Source: a virus (taxonomy: Duplodnaviria; Heunggongvirae; Uroviricota; Caudoviricetes). From it: DNA of 26,494 nt. A model generated the notes under the pieces. That model saw nothing but the letters and a program-made list of their open reading frames with translations. It ran no database searches and was not told the origin of the DNA. A program made the translations under genes and the position numbers. Of this stretch, positions 1,952 to 22,089 are shown in pieces (the stretch's first letter is position 1; the number at the start of each line of letters is the position of its first letter). Location of the stretch: IMG/VR virus record IMGVR_UViG_3300045988_034764. One strand, 5' to 3'.

Positions 1952-2416
1952 ATGATGTATGCAATTTACGTAGCGGCGATATGCGCCGCTAACTTTTCGG
2001 TAACTGTGTTTGGTCCGTGGGCGACACCGGTAAACGCCTTTCTACTTATTGGGCTTGATTTCGTAATAAGAGATAAGTTGCACGAGAGGATTGGTGTACA
2101 AAAAATATTCATACTGATACTAGTAACTGGCATTATAAGTTTCTCCATAAACCCGGCAACCGGCAAGATTGCTATGGCAAGCGTTGTTGCCTTCGCTTTT
2201 GCAGCCGCCATAGATGCCGTTGTCTACCAGGCACTGATCAATAAAAAGTGGTTGGTTAAGTCAAACGTAAGTAATACAGCGGCCTCGGCGGTGGACTCTT
2301 TTATTTTCCCACTAATAGCTTTCGGGGCCTTCATGCCGCTAGTCGTACTGGGCCAATTCGTGGCTAAGGTTTTTGGCGGAGCTTTATGGTCGTTCTTGCT
2401 GAGGAAAATTAAATGA
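1952..2416 (+). CDS. Polytopic membrane protein, YhhQ / COG1738-like (queuosine-precursor transporter family)
   Basis: 154 aa with about 4 hydrophobic helices; motifs recalled from memory as YhhQ-like (D-x-x-x-R, NVS-x-T...FIFPLIAF); GGGGGTGA SD; ATGA overlap with DpdA-like gene. Confidence 0.45.
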   Translation: MMYAIYVAAICAANFSVTVFGPWATPVNAFLLIGLDFVIRDKLHERIGVQKIFILILVTGIISFSINPATGKIAMASVVAFAFAAAIDAVVYQALINKKWLVKSNVSNTAASAVDSFIFPLIAFGAFMPLVVLGQFVAKVFGGALWSFLLRKIK

Positions 2417-3147
2417 CAGTGCATTACCACGGAGGCCCTATTTGGGGTGGGGATGAGCTTATAGAAGCATTGTACCGAGGTGGTGGTGCTCTGGTATCAT
2501 ACGCCCGCCCCGATCAAATACGAAAGATAGCCGCCACGAGATGTAAATTAGTGTTGGACAACGGAGCTTTTTCGACGTGGAAGAAAGCACCGGACAACAT
2601 AGACTGGAGCGCCCACTGGGCAGGATATTATGATTTTGTCGGAGAGTGGTTCAGTCGTATTGAGTGGTTCATAATACCGGACGTTATAGAGGGCACGGAG
2701 GAAGAGAACGACGCATTAATAGAAACTGTCCCCGATTGGTTAAGGTCTAAGGCGGTCCCGGTGTGGCACAGCGATGAAAGTATAAGAAGACTGGTAAAAC
2801 TGTGCCGTGGGTTCAATCGGGTAGCGATAGGTTGCTGCGGACCGCACAGGGCCATACGGTCTAAGTCATGGGGGAAAAGAATGGACCAGGCATTTAATGC
2901 GGTTTATAGAAACAGGAAATTGGATGTAAAACTCCACGGCCTTAGAATGCTGGATGGGCGGGCCTTGAGCCGCTACCCTTTCGACAGCGCTGACAGCACA
3001 AACGTAGCTATAAATGTGCCGAAAACTAAGGCAAGACTACCTGACATAACGGACAAACTGCATCGAACTGCCATAATGAGGCATACCATAGAGATGGTTA
3101 AACCCCCTACAGTAGAGGAATGGCTACTTAAAACTAAGGCCCCATAA
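2413..3147 (+). CDS. dpdA: DpdA-like tRNA-guanine transglycosylase paralog (7-deazaguanine DNA transglycosylase candidate)
   Basis: 244 aa; TGT-like motifs LDNGAF (compare DSGGFQ) and FDSADST (compare FDCVxPT); no zinc-binding subdomain, as in short phage DpdA; coupled to the YhhQ-like gene. Confidence 0.5.
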   Translation: MTVHYHGGPIWGGDELIEALYRGGGALVSYARPDQIRKIAATRCKLVLDNGAFSTWKKAPDNIDWSAHWAGYYDFVGEWFSRIEWFIIPDVIEGTEEENDALIETVPDWLRSKAVPVWHSDESIRRLVKLCRGFNRVAIGCCGPHRAIRSKSWGKRMDQAFNAVYRNRKLDVKLHGLRMLDGRALSRYPFDSADSTNVAINVPKTKARLPDITDKLHRTAIMRHTIEMVKPPTVEEWLLKTKAP

Positions 3148-4906: not shown

Positions 4907-6157
4907 TCACAGAGAAAAAGTAACGGGGATGTTGATTACTGGTTTAACCACCGGCATCTCGTAAACTACAGGATAGCCGAGAGCATCCGCCATATGGTCG
5001 ATGATGCCGTCTTTATCTGGCTCTCCGTTATCGTCATATGCCTGCTGCTCCAGCGTCTTCGCTATCTCGGGGCATAAGTGGTCGTTAACCCACAGCTTAC
5101 CTTTTTCCAGCGCGGTATTCACGGCTAAAACACGGTCTTTAACCGGGGGGTTGGCGGATTTAGCGCGAACATCGAACCCGGCCTGCTGGAGTAACGCGAT
5201 ATCAGAGATTGACGCTGAGTTGGTTTTGCGGTTCTTGCCGCTGGCGTCGGGGTAAACGACGATGCGGTGGCCTTGCGATTTCCACTTCTCGGTAATGACG
5301 CGCACAGTATCCGGCGTATCGAACAGACCTTTCAGTTCTGCCACCGCGTGCCAGCCGTCTTTACGCTGCACATACACGGCGCTCGCGTTCTTCGTAACGT
5401 TGAAGTCCTGCCCGATGTACAGCGTGTCGCCCGGTTGAATAGTCTCTTTGCTGCGGTGCTTGCGACGGTCATACGCGTAATACACGCTGCCGGATGTCAG
5501 GTTAACGAACTCGCCGTTCAGATACGCGTTAATCAACTGTGCCGGGTAAGTCTCCGTCAGCGAGCTAATGTAATCCGGCGGCAGGAATCTCGCATTCTCA
5601 TGAGTTGATGCCTGCACCATTGAGTAACTCGGCGTCGGGTTCTCTTTGAACTTGGCGTAGACGAACTTGAACCCTTCCGGCGTCGTGGTGACGGAGATGT
5701 GGTTGGTTACGCCAGGAATAACCAGACGCATACGGGCTACGATTTTGTTCCACGCCAGCTCAGCTTTCTCGCGACTCAATACGTCGAGCTCATCCACGAC
5801 CGCGGCGGCGATTTTGAAGCCGACGATAGAGCCAGGGTTATCCATCGAACGGCAGATAACCGTACCGAGCACCGTCTTACCGCGAGTGACAACGACCTCT
5901 TTGTCGCCGGATTTAACCAGCACATCAAGGCCGAGCAGGTTAGCCGCTTCCTCGAATGTCGGGTAGAAGATGTCGCGGATGGCCGGGTACGTCGGCCCGA
6001 AGTAGCCCAGGCGCGCACCTGGGTGCTTGAGCATGAATGTAAGCAGGTCCAGACAGCCAACAAATGTCTTGCCGCTGCCGAATCCCCCGACATAGGCTTT
6101 GTATTTGTTATCGCAATTCAGGAACAGTGCCTGCGGGGCGGATAGCTGAATACTCAT
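4907..6157 (-). CDS. terL: Terminase large subunit
   Basis: 416 aa; Walker A GGFGSGKT, Walker B VVDELD; ATGA overlap with upstream small-subunit gene. Confidence 0.85.
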   Translation of the reverse strand: MSIQLSAPQALFLNCDNKYKAYVGGFGSGKTFVGCLDLLTFMLKHPGARLGYFGPTYPAIRDIFYPTFEEAANLLGLDVLVKSGDKEVVVTRGKTVLGTVICRSMDNPGSIVGFKIAAAVVDELDVLSREKAELAWNKIVARMRLVIPGVTNHISVTTTPEGFKFVYAKFKENPTPSYSMVQASTHENARFLPPDYISSLTETYPAQLINAYLNGEFVNLTSGSVYYAYDRRKHRSKETIQPGDTLYIGQDFNVTKNASAVYVQRKDGWHAVAELKGLFDTPDTVRVITEKWKSQGHRIVVYPDASGKNRKTNSASISDIALLQQAGFDVRAKSANPPVKDRVLAVNTALEKGKLWVNDHLCPEIAKTLEQQAYDDNGEPDKDGIIDHMADALGYPVVYEMPVVKPVINIPVTFSL

Positions 6158-6699
6158 TCCTCTACCTCGCCCATGTTCGTTGTTACGATTTTACCCACAG
6201 GCTCCGCGACACTGAAAATAATCTCAGTCGGTGCTGTTTCTTCTGTTGATTCAACTGGTTTCTCTTTGCTGAGGCCCAGCTTCGCCGCAGCAAACGTAGC
6301 AGAGATACCTGCGGCCCCGGTCTCGGTGAAGTACGCCTCTTCCAGCGCCTGTGCGGTCTCCCAGGCTTCTGCAAATGCGGGAATCTCACGCAGCCACAGC
6401 TTAATAATCGGGATAGTTACGCCGATGTGTAAGGCGAAGCGGGCCAGTGACGGGGGTTTATCCTGAATAAGTGGACGTTCGTCGCCCTTAGACGTAGGCA
6501 CAAGCTCCCATGACGTGCGGTCGAAGAACTCGATTAGCGCGTCGCAATAGTCCGGGTCCCACAACGCGGCGGAATTACGGGATGATTGATAAAGGCTCTG
6601 TTTACCGCGTGGTCGTTTACGGCGACGGTTTGCGCTAACAGCTTCTTCATGTGCAGCTTGCACCACCTCTGGCGATGGCTGCTTAAGTTTCAGCTTCAT
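6154..6699 (-). CDS. Terminase small subunit (putative)
   Basis: Start moved to in-frame ATG with AAGGGGA SD (181 aa); immediately upstream of and overlapping terL; basic N-terminus. Confidence 0.5.
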   Translation of the reverse strand: MKLKLKQPSPEVVQAAHEEAVSANRRRKRPRGKQSLYQSSRNSAALWDPDYCDALIEFFDRTSWELVPTSKGDERPLIQDKPPSLARFALHIGVTIPIIKLWLREIPAFAEAWETAQALEEAYFTETGAAGISATFAAAKLGLSKEKPVESTEETAPTEIIFSVAEPVGKIVTTNMGEVEE

Positions 6700-8721: not shown

Positions 8722-9210
8722 TCAACCTTTCACCGTGCGCCCAATAGCCTCTGCCTCTTGCCACGGCTTACCGTCGAACAACGCCAGACGACCCGCAGTA
8801 CGGCGACGCAGACCGAGTAGTGGTTTGCCGTTCTGGTTGATGAACAACGCCAGCTTAGCACGCAGCGTCGCAATATCACCGGAACGCAGGGCCTTGCCAG
8901 TGCCGGTAGTAACTGCAATCACGCCAGCACCAGCGTTATAGACCAGGTCGCATACTGCATCGAACTGCGCCTGTGTCAAGGAGTGGTGCGCTGCAGCGTC
9001 AACCGCAGCTACGGCTTTAGCCATATCACGATTCAGTAATAGGAGGCCTTGCCCGGGAGTGATGGTCTTACCTGGGGTTACGTCCGGTCCGTAATGACCG
9101 TAACCAATAGTCAGGTACTTCTCGTTCGGGGTAGCGCGGTACGCGGTTCTACGGAATCCCTCGAACGCGGCGGTGAAATGCAACCCATTATCTGAAATGT
9201 TTCGAGACAC
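8722..9210 (-). CDS. Endolysin, GH24 phage lysozyme family
   Basis: Motif pattern FEGFRRTAYRATPNEKYLTIGYGH typical of T4/P22-type lysozymes; start moved to GTG with GGAGGA SD 8 nt upstream (track start is TTG). Confidence 0.8.
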   Translation of the reverse strand: MSRNISDNGLHFTAAFEGFRRTAYRATPNEKYLTIGYGHYGPDVTPGKTITPGQGLLLLNRDMAKAVAAVDAAAHHSLTQAQFDAVCDLVYNAGAGVIAVTTGTGKALRSGDIATLRAKLALFINQNGKPLLGLRRRTAGRLALFDGKPWQEAEAIGRTVKG

Positions 9211-9460
9211 GCTTATGTCCTCCGTATGACAGCCACGCCTGACGAATCTGACGCAGCGCAACTAATGTGATTAATGTCTCAGGCAGCGTAGGCGACATGC
9301 TGCCCTGTAGCAGGTGGATACATCCGGCGGCGCAGACGATAGCGGTCAGGATATAGAGCACCCGACCAAATAGTCCGTCATCCACGCTGGGATGATATAC
9401 ATTAAACAGCGATGTGCCCCCTATTGCCAGCATACCGCCGAACCAGAATAACTCATTCAT
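9188..9460 (-). CDS. Lysis-associated membrane protein (holin/antiholin-like, 2 TM)
   Basis: Start moved to ATG with GAGGAGG SD; two hydrophobic helices; overlaps endolysin start by 23 nt. Confidence 0.5.
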   Translation of the reverse strand: MNELFWFGGMLAIGGTSLFNVYHPSVDDGLFGRVLYILTAIVCAAGCIHLLQGSMSPTLPETLITLVALRQIRQAWLSYGGHKRVSKHFR

Positions 9461-9761
9461 CTGGGCCTCCTCGACGTGGGATGTATTCTCCGGCGACGAT
9501 ACCGGAGAGACGGGAATAGATAGGCATCCAGAGAACCGCGATGATGAAGCCCAGGCCCGCGATTTCACGGTCGCCCGTGATACCGAACCATTGAGCCGCG
9601 AGAGGTGCGCCAAATACGGCGCAGGTGAAGCCAGTTGCAATAAAGCAGAAGCCGTCGATAGGGCCAGAAATAACGGACTTATGTTGTCGTAGTCCGATGA
9701 CCCCTCCGGCGAGTGCGGCAGCGAGAAGCCAGCCTGTCACTGTTTCAGTAAATTTATCCAA
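9453..9761 (-). CDS. Holin-like membrane protein (about 3 TM)
   Basis: 102 aa; TTG start with GGAGGA SD 6 nt upstream; hydrophobic helices and charged C-terminus; immediately upstream of the lysis genes. Confidence 0.5.
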   Translation of the reverse strand: MDKFTETVTGWLLAAALAGGVIGLRQHKSVISGPIDGFCFIATGFTCAVFGAPLAAQWFGITGDREIAGLGFIIAVLWMPIYSRLSGIVAGEYIPRRGGPDE

Positions 9762-9820
9762 GATGAATCCTCCAGGTGCGTATTAAGTATGCAGTAACTG
9801 GAGGATACCACGGGTAGGAA

Positions 9821-10261
9821 TTATCCTAATAGTTGTTTGGTAATAATCTTGCCGCCGGTGTTAGTGTCAAACTTCGATGCAACGGCTACACCGCCATGTG
9901 CTGAATATTCACATTCCATGGCCGCCAGTGCGTAGGGAGAACCGGAACCAACGGCGGCAAAGCTATCGGCAATCGGAATAACCGAACTAAGTGCGCAATC
10001 CCACGATTTATAAAACGAGACTTTATACACCTTTTCTGTGTCTTTCACGAATACCAGAGCTTCGAAATCAAAATCATAGTGCTTTGCCTGAAGAATATCA
10101 GGGCAATCGATAAGCATAGCCCCTACCCCCGCATCGCCCGCTACCCCGATAACAGCAAAATCATTCTCATATATCTTTGTGTCTGTGTTGTAACAGTTAC
10201 TTCCGCACACAACACGTGTATCGCAGGCCATTGTCTTTCCATCAAACGCGATTGTAGTCAT
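9821..10261 (-). CDS. HslV-like / proteasome beta-type Ntn-hydrolase peptidase
   Basis: 146 aa; N-terminal MTTIAF (Thr nucleophile after Met removal) and VGSGSPYALAAM resembling HslV IGSGGPYAQAAA; GGAGG SD. Confidence 0.6.
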   Translation of the reverse strand: MTTIAFDGKTMACDTRVVCGSNCYNTDTKIYENDFAVIGVAGDAGVGAMLIDCPDILQAKHYDFDFEALVFVKDTEKVYKVSFYKSWDCALSSVIPIADSFAAVGSGSPYALAAMECEYSAHGGVAVASKFDTNTGGKIITKQLLG

Positions 10262-10551
10262 TTGTGCCTCCAGATGTATTGGCGTCTCTGCGGTTTCGTC
10301 GGAATATCATCGTATCCCAGCGATTTCCAGTAATTAAATAGCCGATTAGCGATAGCGGCGCGTTCCTGTGTTTTAAACTCACCGAGATTAACGGCCTTCC
10401 CGTTCTGGAATCCGCAGTCGCGGACAGCTTTACGTCTGGCCTGAATCTCAGGGTACAGCGCGTTACCCCGACGCTTGTATATCTGTGTTTTAGCTCTCGG
10501 TGACAGCGGCACAAGGCCGCTACGTTTCAGGATGTCAGTTGCAAGGCTCAT
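10258..10551 (-). CDS. Hypothetical basic protein (97 aa)
   Basis: ATG with AGGAGA SD; ATGA overlap with HslV-like gene. Confidence 0.5.
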   Translation of the reverse strand: MSLATDILKRSGLVPLSPRAKTQIYKRRGNALYPEIQARRKAVRDCGFQNGKAVNLGEFKTQERAAIANRLFNYWKSLGYDDIPTKPQRRQYIWRHK

Positions 10552-11724: not shown

Positions 11725-11848
11725 TGTTGCATCTCCCGCAATAGTCGCTTCGATTGTTGCGTTTGGTGAAATAGAACAAAAATGAGAAAAATGATACGCT
11801 GCTGTGTAGCAGCGTAAGTCACTCAGTAAAATCCCAAACTATTGAACA

Positions 11849-12756: not shown

Positions 12757-12972
12757 CACTTCGCCCCTTTGAATTTAAAATTGTTGCCGATGAGTTTTAT
12801 CCCGTCCTCCCGGACCCATAAATCGAAACACCATTCTGGATGCGCGAGATAGCATAACCCAGGAACTTAATTCGAAACTCGTTTAATTATTGCGTAATGT
12901 CCGCCGCGTTTCGTTTTCACCAACTGACCCTTCTTAAACATAACCCTCACTCCTCTGTCTCGTTTCGATAAG

Positions 12973-13006
12973 TGAATAGTATCCTATTATATTGGGGTGT
13001 GCAAGA
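12973..13006 (-). promoter_or_regulatory. sigma70-like promoter with operator motif (copy B)
   Basis: On minus strand TTGCAC (12999-13004), 17-bp spacer, TACTAT (12976-12981); core TGAATAGTATCCTATTATA at 12973-12991. Confidence 0.45.
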
Positions 13007-13362
13007 GAATAGTTACGTTGCCGTTGTGATTCTTTCGTTTCTTAAAAGAGTACGCAACGCAGTGGGTGGGCGTTAGCCCACCCCAGCGGAGTGAAGTACT
13101 CTCTACCTTGTTTACGGCAATTATAGAAACTTTTAATTATCAGTGACTTGGGTATTTAGGCGGGATTAACAATAGACTTTGGCCCTTCCGAAAGCGCCAG
13201 CGGAACTACACTCAAGTGCCTAATGGCACGCGTTGCGTTCCCTGCCGCTCCGCGGTCGCTTGCGATATCTCACAAGCTCAGTGAAGCTTAGCATATTTTT
13301 AAGTAAAAGTCAATACCAGTAGCATCTTTTGTATCTTAGTAACTTTGTGTGGCGTTTTGGTT

Positions 13363-19890: not shown

Positions 19891-22089
19891 ATGCCTAATT
19901 TATTGTATCTGGATACTGAAACATTCTCTGAAGCTGACCTAAAGAAAGTAGGGTCATACGCGTACGCGGAACACGCAACAACTGAGATTATAATATGCAC
20001 ATACGCCATTGATGACGGGCCTGTAGAAGTATGGGACTGCACTTCCGAACCAGTAATGCCGATAAACCTCCGCGTTGCGCTCCGTAATGTTATGCGCGGA
20101 CGTATGAGAATCGTAGGCCATAACTTTTTAATGTTCGACAGACTAGTTATGAAGCACTGTTGGGGGGTGGATATCAAACCAAGAAATACCATCGACACTA
20201 TGATTCGGGCGTTTCGTCACGCGTTGCCGGGGTCACTTGATGCGCTGTGTGAAGTGCTTGGCGTGTCCGCCGACAATGCGAAAGACAAACGAGGTAAAGC
20301 GCTGATTCAGCGTTTTTCTAAACCGACACCGAAGAACTACAAAATTCGCCGCTACACCGCAGAAACGCACCCAGACGAGTGGGCGTTATTCATCAAGTAC
20401 GCCGTGAGCGACATTACTGCGATGCGTGAAGTCTTTCATAAGCTGCCGCGTTGGGGTAACTCGGAGTTTGAGGACCGTGTACTTGAACTTGACCAATTAA
20501 TCAACGACCGTGGGTTTAAGGTTGACGTAGCGCTGGCAGAAGCCGCGATTGAAGCCGTGGAGAAGCACAAGGCACAGTTACAGGAAGAAGCCCAACTAAA
20601 ATACGGCGGCTCGCTTACTGGTAAGGACTTTCTGCCGATTCTGCGTGAACTCGCACCCGCGCACCGCATCCACAATGCGCAGAAGTCGACGCTGAATGAC
20701 CTGCTGGCGGATGATGATTTACCGGACGACGCCCGCACGATTATCGAAATGCGCCTCGGTGCCGCATCCACGGCATCAACGAAATATAACCCGCTGCTGT
20801 TAGGCCGCTCGTCTGACGACCGCCGTCGTGGTTGTTTACAGTACGGCGGGGCAAAACGGACTCTGCGATGGGCGGGTAAAGGCTTCCAGCCGCAGAACCT
20901 CGCGCGCGGGTACTATCACGATGATGAACTGGATAAAGGCATTTCTGCGCTACTTAAGGGCCGTGCTCATCGCCGTTTCGACGTAGCCAAGCTAACGGCA
21001 TCGACGGTTCGTAGCTGCATCATACCGGAAGCTGGGCATAAATTTGTCGTCGCCGATTACTCTAACGTTGAGGGTCGTGGGCTTGCGTGGCTGGCTGGTG
21101 AAGAAACCGCGCTTGATACGTTCCGCGCCGGACTGGATATTTATTGCGTAACCGCGGGTAAGATGTTTGGCATGGATCCCGACGATATTAAGAAAAACTT
21201 CAAGGAAATCAGACAGATAGGTAAGGCCTGCGAACTGGGCCTCGGCTATGAGGGTGGCGTCGGAGCGTTCGTTACGTTCGCTAAAAACTTAGGCCTCGAC
21301 CTTATTGAGATGGCTAAAACAATGGATGGTACATTCCCTGACCACATATGGGCCGCTACCGCACGGGGTTATGAGTGGGCGCGTATCCAGGAAGCAAAGC
21401 GACCGCCGCATCCTGGTGAAAAGGACGACCGACCGTCGTATATTCTGGATAAGAAAGTGTGGCGTACCTGCGACGCTATCAAGCGCATGTGGCGCGAGTC
21501 GCACCCGGAAACAGTAGCGTTCTGGCGCGACCTTAAAGACGGAATTTTAGCCGCTGTAAGAAATCCTGGTCGTGAATTTTGGGCGGGGGCGCATCTGCGC
21601 AAGAATGGCGAGCGCGCTATCCGAATCTGGAGAACAGTAGAAACCGATTCATCCGGTAGGAAGGTTCCTGGTTGGTGGTTGTGTATGGAGTTGCCGTCAG
21701 GCCGCATCCTTTCGTACCCTGGAATCGGCGTTAGCGTGACAAAAGAAACAGACGAAGACGGACGGGTAAACACGAATGTGCGAATCAAGTATCAGGGCGA
21801 AAACCAGTTAACCCGCCAATGGACTACCTTATACACCCACGGCGGTAAAGCATGTGAAAACATTGTCCAGGCGCTGTGCCGTGATTTACTGGCGTATGCG
21901 ATGCTTAACGTTGAGCGTGGCGGATATCCTATCGTGCTTTCGGTACACGATGAACTGGTATGCGAAACTCCAGATACCCCTGAGTACACGGTGGCCGAAC
22001 TGGAGAAATTAATGTGCGCGTTGCCAGAGTGGGCAGAAGGCTTCCCTCTTGTAGCGGAAGGGCAGGAGTTAAAACGCTATGCTAAGTAA
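19891..22089 (+). CDS. DNA polymerase, family A (Pol I-like) with 3'-5' exonuclease domain
   Basis: 732 aa; N-terminal Exo I motif YLDTETFS; polymerase-type motifs in the C-terminal half. Confidence 0.85.
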   Translation: MPNLLYLDTETFSEADLKKVGSYAYAEHATTEIIICTYAIDDGPVEVWDCTSEPVMPINLRVALRNVMRGRMRIVGHNFLMFDRLVMKHCWGVDIKPRNTIDTMIRAFRHALPGSLDALCEVLGVSADNAKDKRGKALIQRFSKPTPKNYKIRRYTAETHPDEWALFIKYAVSDITAMREVFHKLPRWGNSEFEDRVLELDQLINDRGFKVDVALAEAAIEAVEKHKAQLQEEAQLKYGGSLTGKDFLPILRELAPAHRIHNAQKSTLNDLLADDDLPDDARTIIEMRLGAASTASTKYNPLLLGRSSDDRRRGCLQYGGAKRTLRWAGKGFQPQNLARGYYHDDELDKGISALLKGRAHRRFDVAKLTASTVRSCIIPEAGHKFVVADYSNVEGRGLAWLAGEETALDTFRAGLDIYCVTAGKMFGMDPDDIKKNFKEIRQIGKACELGLGYEGGVGAFVTFAKNLGLDLIEMAKTMDGTFPDHIWAATARGYEWARIQEAKRPPHPGEKDDRPSYILDKKVWRTCDAIKRMWRESHPETVAFWRDLKDGILAAVRNPGREFWAGAHLRKNGERAIRIWRTVETDSSGRKVPGWWLCMELPSGRILSYPGIGVSVTKETDEDGRVNTNVRIKYQGENQLTRQWTTLYTHGGKACENIVQALCRDLLAYAMLNVERGGYPIVLSVHDELVCETPDTPEYTVAELEKLMCALPEWAEGFPLVAEGQELKRYAK

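Follow-up and report, generated by a model that had tools for sequence, protein, structure and literature searches.

The window, the whole stretch of 26,494 nucleotides that was analysed, belongs to a Kagunavirus (Guernseyvirinae) coliphage, and the region is about 90% identical at the nucleotide level to LF7074P1, phiEc3 and K1H. The minus strand of the window carries the genes for the small and large terminase subunits, the portal, head morphogenesis and Hoc-like head decoration. The plus strand encodes a helicase-primase, an exonuclease, a single-stranded DNA-binding protein, a DNA polymerase and an SNF2-type helicase. The gene under study encodes a proteasome/HslV homolog of the phage mini-proteasome homolog (PPH) type, referred to here as PPH, and occupies positions 9821-10261 of the minus strand. 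It begins with ATG, ends with a stop codon at 9821-9823 and encodes 146 aa; it is placed by the open reading frame list, PHROG 1040, Pfam, profile comparison, AlphaFold2 and Foldseek. The translation starts with MTTIAFDGKTMACDT (MTTIAFDGK), and residues 103-115 are A-VGSGSPYALAAM, i.e. AVGSGSPYALAAM. Both the MTTIAF start and the VGSGSPYALAAM motif, which were the basis of the initial annotation, can be read in the sequence. A Shine-Dalgarno GGAGG, also read from the sequence, lies on the minus strand at 10267-10271, 5 nt 5' of the ATG. The ATG itself overlaps the TGA stop of an upstream gene of 98 aa, phrog_9632, in the form ATGA.

Downstream of PPH, on the same strand, a spacer of 59 nt (9762-9820, defined by alignment with K1H and Esher4) leads to two holin genes followed by an endolysin gene, which bears out the reported adjacency to holin and endolysin genes. 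The first holin (9453-9761, minus strand, phrog_2359) has 102 aa and a TTG start. The second holin (90 aa, phrog_2508) is encoded on the minus strand within 9188-9640, and the endolysin gene (8722-9261, minus strand) encodes a protein of the lysozyme family (Pfam PF00959 at 7e-27). Within the spacer, a CCUCC upstream of the holin Shine-Dalgarno GGAGG base-pairs with it in a hairpin (UCCUCCAG...CUGGAGGA). The predicted RNA fold has an energy of -23.8 kcal/mol, with z = -3.73 against shuffled sequences. K1H and Esher4, which have no PPH, carry nearly the same spacer, with a single mismatch, in Esher4. The hairpin may provide translational control of holin synthesis.

PPH was initially annotated as the last gene of an operon, but no terminator-like site is seen between PPH and the holin. 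This makes it more likely, as judged from the sequence, that PPH shares a transcript with the lysis genes. A sigma-70-like site in the 3' end of PPH (9870-9843) was weighed as a possible lysis-gene promoter and rejected: such sites are no commoner here than in shuffled sequence, and this one is inside the segment that is absent from K1H. From the divergent control region (about 12760-13350) to the lysis genes, the minus strand has a single terminator-like hairpin, at 11795-11816. This hairpin may split the leftward operon of small genes into an early part and a part with PPH and the lysis genes.

Two further features of the window were observed away from PPH. Positions 1952-3147 hold two plus-strand genes between the minus-strand portal and head morphogenesis genes. 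Their products are a transporter resembling Vut_1/YhhQ (Pfam 2.5e-9) and a DpdA-like 'queuine tRNA-ribosyltransferase' (phrog_887, 2.9e-84); the two genes look like a 7-deazaguanine DNA-modification cassette. At the equivalent site the Jerseyvirus SE2 has an opposite-strand 'amidase' instead. The other feature is in the DNA polymerase ORF (19891-22089, plus strand, 732 aa), of which residues 444-537 match the endonuclease family phrog_93 (7.6e-15). This stretch may have been inserted as a homing endonuclease or an intein-like element. The polymerase of SE2 is annotated as two separate genes.

The PPH ORF is a genuine gene and not a chance ORF. PHROG 1040, 'peptidase HslV family', matches the 146-aa protein with E = 4e-35. 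There are 291 protein matches to PPH in a set of 5.8 billion proteins, and tblastn finds PPH in 300 phage records. The median dN/dS of the Kagunavirus PPH copies is 0.14 (36 pairs).

The single sequence is a weak guide to the fold. Pfam PF00227 (Proteasome) scores 22.5 bits, which is borderline against the gathering cut-off of 22.4, and the best PDB match to HslV by single-sequence phmmer is non-significant (E = 0.12). A profile built from 19 PPH homologs was needed for significant PDB matches. This profile matches the HslV of T. maritima (1m4y) at 1.1e-11, other HslV structures at about 1e-9, proteasome beta5 at about 1e-8 and BPH at 5.9e-7. The comparison with E. coli HslV by hhalign gives a probability of 96%. 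The numbering of the HslV sequence in that comparison fits the residues quoted in PMC5777263 and PMC6429459. An AlphaFold2 model on the same 19 homologs has a pLDDT of 92.2 and a pTM of 0.88. The top 50 Foldseek matches in the PDB are all HslV or proteasome beta subunits, with no phage PPH structure among them. The best is S. aureus HslV (6kui, E = 1.8e-6, TM 0.72), and the beta subunits also reach a TM of about 0.72. Many phage proteins in BFVD share the PPH fold.

Membership of the protein in the proteasome-beta/HslV N-terminal-threonine (Ntn) hydrolase superfamily is supported by the profile matches and the model. The initial annotation had proposed an Ntn hydrolase of the HslV/proteasome-beta type with an exposed threonine, and had set beforehand a structure and profile comparison with HslV and 20S beta subunits as the check; this comparison does predict an Ntn-hydrolase fold. 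In the model a single short helix (44-51) lies between the two halves of the sheet and is followed by a loop to the strand 66-72. Helix H2 is absent from the model, and in hhalign PPH has a gap opposite HslV residues from about 60 to 90. The C-terminal part has helices 108-116 and 121-131, and the chain ends after the strand 139-143. The N-terminus is buried in the fold.

Conservation of the active site was evaluated in an alignment of 151 diverse PPH family representatives from a library at 50% identity. The predicted nucleophile after removal of Met1 is Thr2 (codon 10256-10258, minus strand, as for all codons given here); 97% of the 151 have T at this position and the other 3% have S. Asp14 (10220-10222) is conserved in 99% and is aligned by hhalign with Asp17 of HslV, the equivalent of the proteasome Asp17. 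Lys29 (10175-10177) is 100% conserved and is the equivalent of the catalytic Lys33; hhalign sets it at Lys32/Lys33 of HslV, so the alignment must have slipped by one residue in the hairpin. Gly42 (10136-10138), also 100% conserved, is aligned by hhalign with the oxyanion-hole glycine, Gly47 in the proteasome and Gly48 in E. coli HslV, whose role is described in PMC8665760. The GSG loop, Gly105-Ser106-Gly107 (9941-9949), is conserved at 100%, 95% and 100%. It aligns with the IGSGG motif of HslV, and Ser106 corresponds to the proteasome Ser129. Finally, a D-x-x-T motif, Asp132-Thr135 (9857-9868), has D in 96% and T in 81% of the members, with S in another 14%. Its spacing and its position after helix H4 suggest that it represents Asp166/Ser169 of the proteasome.

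The start MTT[IV] is found in about 90% of the top family representatives, so there is no propeptide. The mature N-terminus of E. coli HslV is likewise Thr2 of the primary product (PMC7468587). By alignment, the catalytic set of Thr2, Asp14, Lys29, Gly42, Ser106, Asp132 and Thr135 is complete and strongly conserved. The near-invariance of the active site and the dN/dS of 0.14 show that PPH is functional where it is present and that there is selection on catalysis.

In the window copy, the turn that joins the two C-terminal helices contains Glu118 (codon 9908-9910), at a position that is Gly in 99% of the 151 members. Since Glu is found at this position in 16 of the 120 closest homolog clusters, Glu118 is a minority polymorphism and not a sequencing error. 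The Kagunavirus and Jerseyvirus copies also have an insertion of eight residues, SFYKSWDC (residues 82-89, codons 9995-10018), which is located in a beta-hairpin. It is absent from about 94-99% of the family representatives and is a clade-specific surface feature.

PPH homologs are numerous. The PPH profile is matched by 12,008 clusters (50% identity) at E <= 1e-3 and by 7,940 at E <= 1e-10, and the best 150 of the matching clusters have a median length of 145 aa. The family is therefore far larger than was reported in 2021, with 7,940 clusters against 324 sequences. A scan of bacterial genome contigs with a profile of six PPH sequences shows that the copies in bacterial genome assemblies are almost all from Pseudomonadota. 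Three contigs, from a Bacillota metagenome bin, Taishania pollutisoli and Novosphingobium silvae, carry a PPH that is 60-86% identical to the window protein. These look like Kagunavirus/Jerseyvirus phage contigs that contaminate the assemblies and not like bacterial genes.

The presence of PPH in the relatives of the window phage is patchy. The upstream gene phrog_9632 is found in 483 phage records (358 Salmonella, 113 Escherichia/Kagunavirus), and the 300 records with PPH include 258 from Salmonella and 33 from Escherichia/Kagunavirus. PPH is missing from about 70% of the Kagunavirus-type and about a quarter of the Jerseyvirus-type records. Guernseyvirinae that have PPH always carry it directly before the holin and endolysin genes. 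The phrog_9632 gene of K1H and Esher4 leads directly into the holin spacer, with a precise gap that extends from the PPH start codon to about codon 140. Some 18 nt from the 3' end of PPH are kept in both phages, whose holins and endolysin are unchanged. The gap is probably a deletion, an insertion of the gene in the other phages being the less likely reading. On either reading, PPH is dispensed with in phages that have an identical lysis cassette. PPH is an accessory gene and is dispensable, as closely related viable phages do without it. The natural presence and absence of PPH in E. coli and Salmonella isolates of Kagunavirus and Jerseyvirus is a convenient direct genetic test system.

The neighbourhood of PPH is different in more distant phages. 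Forty dereplicated distant phage loci, with homologs of 28-37% identity, were compared; the PPH ORF was forced into the ORF calling, which used GC3 weighting, and the calls of neighbouring genes are approximate. Within three genes downstream of PPH there is mostly a terminase large subunit, a portal or a small terminase. Upstream there is mostly a helicase, primase, polymerase or exonuclease, as in a Manatee Spring phage where the polymerase and exonuclease genes are followed by the PPH homolog. The homolog is thus usually between the replication and packaging genes in these 40 phages. Among the 84 proteins encoded downstream at these loci, each endolysin family has only one or two matches. 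No conserved partner gene is seen, and the largest cluster of immediate neighbours is found at three of the 40 loci. Because there is no shared neighbour and endolysin neighbours are rare, the adjacency to the lysis genes looks like a location at a module boundary and not like functional coupling.

In three viral contigs the PPH homolog is at 6001-6414, apparently inside a structural operon. ORF sizes and PHROG counts suggest that it is located between the head-tail adaptor (Ad1) gene and the head-closure, Neck1 and tail-terminator genes. This is an unusual site for an enzyme gene. In a few of the distant loci PPH appears to be surrounded by genes for head and head-tail connector proteins.

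The best explanation of these observations is that PPH would be a propeptide-free, stand-alone threonine peptidase which acts as a dispensable accessory factor. We give this reading, which relies on sequence comparison and the model, a probability of roughly 0.55. Host methionine aminopeptidase would remove Met1 and expose Thr2. The free Thr2 would be the nucleophile. Lys29 and Asp14 would serve it as a proton relay, the oxyanion hole would be provided by Gly42, and the N-terminus would be positioned by Ser106, Asp132 and Thr135. All characterised members of group I assemble into rings, and the PPH subunits probably do so too, as homo-oligomers. Inside the infected cell these rings would need no dedicated unfoldase to cleave peptides, unfolded proteins or a specific target. 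Such independent action is probable because H2, the HslU pocket and a partner gene are all missing. The role could be that of a dispensable accessory, e.g. in host takeover or counter-defence, encoded at the module boundary before the lysis and packaging genes. The patchy distribution fits a conditionally useful accessory role of this kind. Host proteolysis, which the initial annotation also suggested, is a possible role. PPH is probably neither part of the lysis machinery nor an HslU client. Because BPH is inert on standard substrates with an intact active site, the peptidase activity of PPH is something that we infer.

A regulation of lysis timing by PPH, for example by processing of a holin, antiholin, endolysin or spanin, was one of the roles suggested initially. 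The conserved adjacency to the holin and endolysin genes across Kagunavirus and Jerseyvirus, the lack of a predicted terminator before the holin and the few distant homologs that are also near endolysins would be consistent with such a role. However, most Kagunavirus-type records lack the gene, K1H and Esher4 lack only PPH and keep the spacer, the holins and the endolysin, and the distant homologs have mainly terminase and replication neighbours and are rarely near lysis genes. A function in lysis timing is therefore very unlikely. The packaging neighbours raise another candidate, a head-maturation (prohead) protease, since terminase large subunit, portal or head-connector genes are no more than three or four genes away in many distant loci. 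A prohead protease would be essential, but related phages are viable without PPH. In addition, the Guernseyvirinae phage SE2 has separate scaffolding and major head proteins and no annotated protease in its head module. It is hard to believe that PPH matures heads, and this is the explanation to which we give least credence.

A docking of PPH rings to the host unfoldase HslU would produce a hybrid ATP-dependent protease that redirects host proteolysis. The protein is an HslV homolog with the same MTTI N-terminus, and the hairpin region of the HslU groove in HslV is kept as PPH strands 16-25. The hosts of the window phage and of nearly all the bacterial or prophage copies are Pseudomonadota. 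HslU is generally present in Pseudomonadota, so the host distribution is compatible with the use of HslU. The interface itself is less favourable. The pocket of HslV for the C-terminal tail of HslU consists of Phe54, Phe57, Ala79/Lys80 and Gln114 (PMC6429459, PMC5777263). A pore cluster of Arg86/Arg89/Lys90 shifts on HslU binding, and its mutation cripples HslV (PMC5777263). The HslV segment that falls in the gap holds both Ala79/Lys80, which are on H2, and this HslU-responsive cluster, which follows H2, so that in the alignment both are without a PPH counterpart and are deleted along with H2. Phe54 and Phe57 are replaced by Ala48 and Ile51 in the hhalign comparison, and both positions are variable across the family. 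BPH, another HslV descendant, no longer has the HslU interface and failed to retrieve HslU in a pull-down (PMC5777263), and the HslV equivalog score of PPH is about 15 bits against a cut-off of about 158. The partnership with host HslU proposed in the initial annotation is weakened by the absent H2 and the altered pocket, and we consider it unlikely. PPH could instead be a catalytically irrelevant decoy that poisons host HslVU, either by co-assembly with HslV or by titration of HslU. PPH is indeed homologous to HslV, small and without a partner. Nevertheless, Thr2, Asp14, Lys29, Gly42 and the GSG loop are near-invariant in very divergent members, which points to selection on catalysis, and the elements of the HslV ring and of the HslU interface are not conserved in PPH. 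A decoy is thus highly improbable.

The Ntn site might also be used for other chemistry, as in a sequence-specific ligase or transpeptidase like the archaeal connectase, or in an amidohydrolase with a non-protein substrate. Connectase, a ligase, belongs to the superfamily, as do many stand-alone homologs without detectable peptidase activity (PMC8665760, PMC5777263), and according to the model the loss of H2 would reshape the surface beside the active site. On the other hand, PPH is in group I and outside the connectase lineage (PMC8665760), it keeps all the residues typical of proteolytic members, and the 40 distant loci have no conserved substrate-like partner gene nearby. A non-proteolytic function is doubtful for these reasons. 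The preferred reading of a stand-alone peptidase has a more speculative extension. PPH, maybe by hijacking HslU, could destroy a specific host protein late in infection and so be a protease-based counter-defence or host-takeover factor. The target would be, e.g., an immune sensor or a stress or envelope regulator. If this is true, the patchy presence of PPH in near-identical Kagunavirus genomes would reflect an arms race with particular host strains. We regard this extension as a long shot. The PADLOC defence-system models give no match to PPH even at E = 10.

The comparison with known systems begins with the 20S proteasome. PPH shares with its beta subunits (e.g. beta5) the fold, the equivalents of Thr1, Asp17, Lys33, Gly47 and Ser129, and a D-x-x-S/T motif with the spacing of Asp166/Ser169. 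It differs from them in being much smaller and in having no propeptide, no alpha-ring partner and no H2.

HslV (ClpQ), which forms the peptidase part of the ATP-dependent HslVU protease of bacteria, is the best solved-structure match of the PPH protein. The two have in common the Ntn fold, an MTTI N-terminus that is matured by removal of Met, and the equivalents of Asp17, Lys33 and the GSG loop. HslV has about 175 aa and PPH 146 aa, so PPH is shorter by about 30 residues, as the initial annotation noted, and no hslU is found alongside it. No AAA+ unfoldase or HslU-like ATPase is present among the scanned ORFs of at least 120 aa in the window, in agreement with what had been reported. The HslV equivalog models TIGR03692 and NF003964 give 15.4 bits against a cut-off of 157.75 and 14.4 bits against a cut-off of 137, respectively. 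Judged by these scores and by the predicted structure, the protein is a relative of HslV and not HslV.

BPH, the Betaproteobacteria proteasome homolog, is also derived from HslV and stands alone. Its active site is complete, and like PPH it has neither a propeptide nor a partner ATPase. As mentioned above, it is inert on standard substrates (PMC5777263). BPH is different in that it has about 200 aa, keeps H2, has a long acidic pore loop, is cellular and forms 14-mers.

The published family that accommodates the protein is PPH (Fuchs et al. 2021). Its members have about 140 aa, come from tailed phages of Proteobacteria and have no propeptide, no H2 and no C-terminal S12/H5 (PMC8665760). H2 is missing only in PPH and RPC, and RPC has a C-terminal extension where PPH has none (PMC8665760). 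The published representative is WP_042125023.1, the survey of 2021 comprised the 324 sequences mentioned above, and PPH is in group I of the cluster map with HslV, BPH, AAH and CPH (PMC8665760). PHROG 1040 and the GenBank label 'peptidase HslV family' seem to denote this family. GenBank labels in Jerseyvirus and Kagunavirus are 'peptidase HslV family', 'ATP-dependent protease' and 'protease'. A literature search found the bioinformatic paper of 2021 and genome announcements, and no biochemical or genetic study of any PPH or viral proteasome homolog. Placed by the published criteria, which were applied to its sequence and model, the protein is a member of this already described family. Like the published members it comes from a tailed phage, has a length of 146 aa and a Thr/Asp/Lys triad with the oxyanion Gly, and is without H2 and S12/H5. 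The window locus adds no new kind of gene; the family is already described and annotated. What distinguishes the protein from other PPH members is the insertion 82-89 of the Kagunavirus/Jerseyvirus branch and the Glu118 of the window copy, and neither is a difference of kind.
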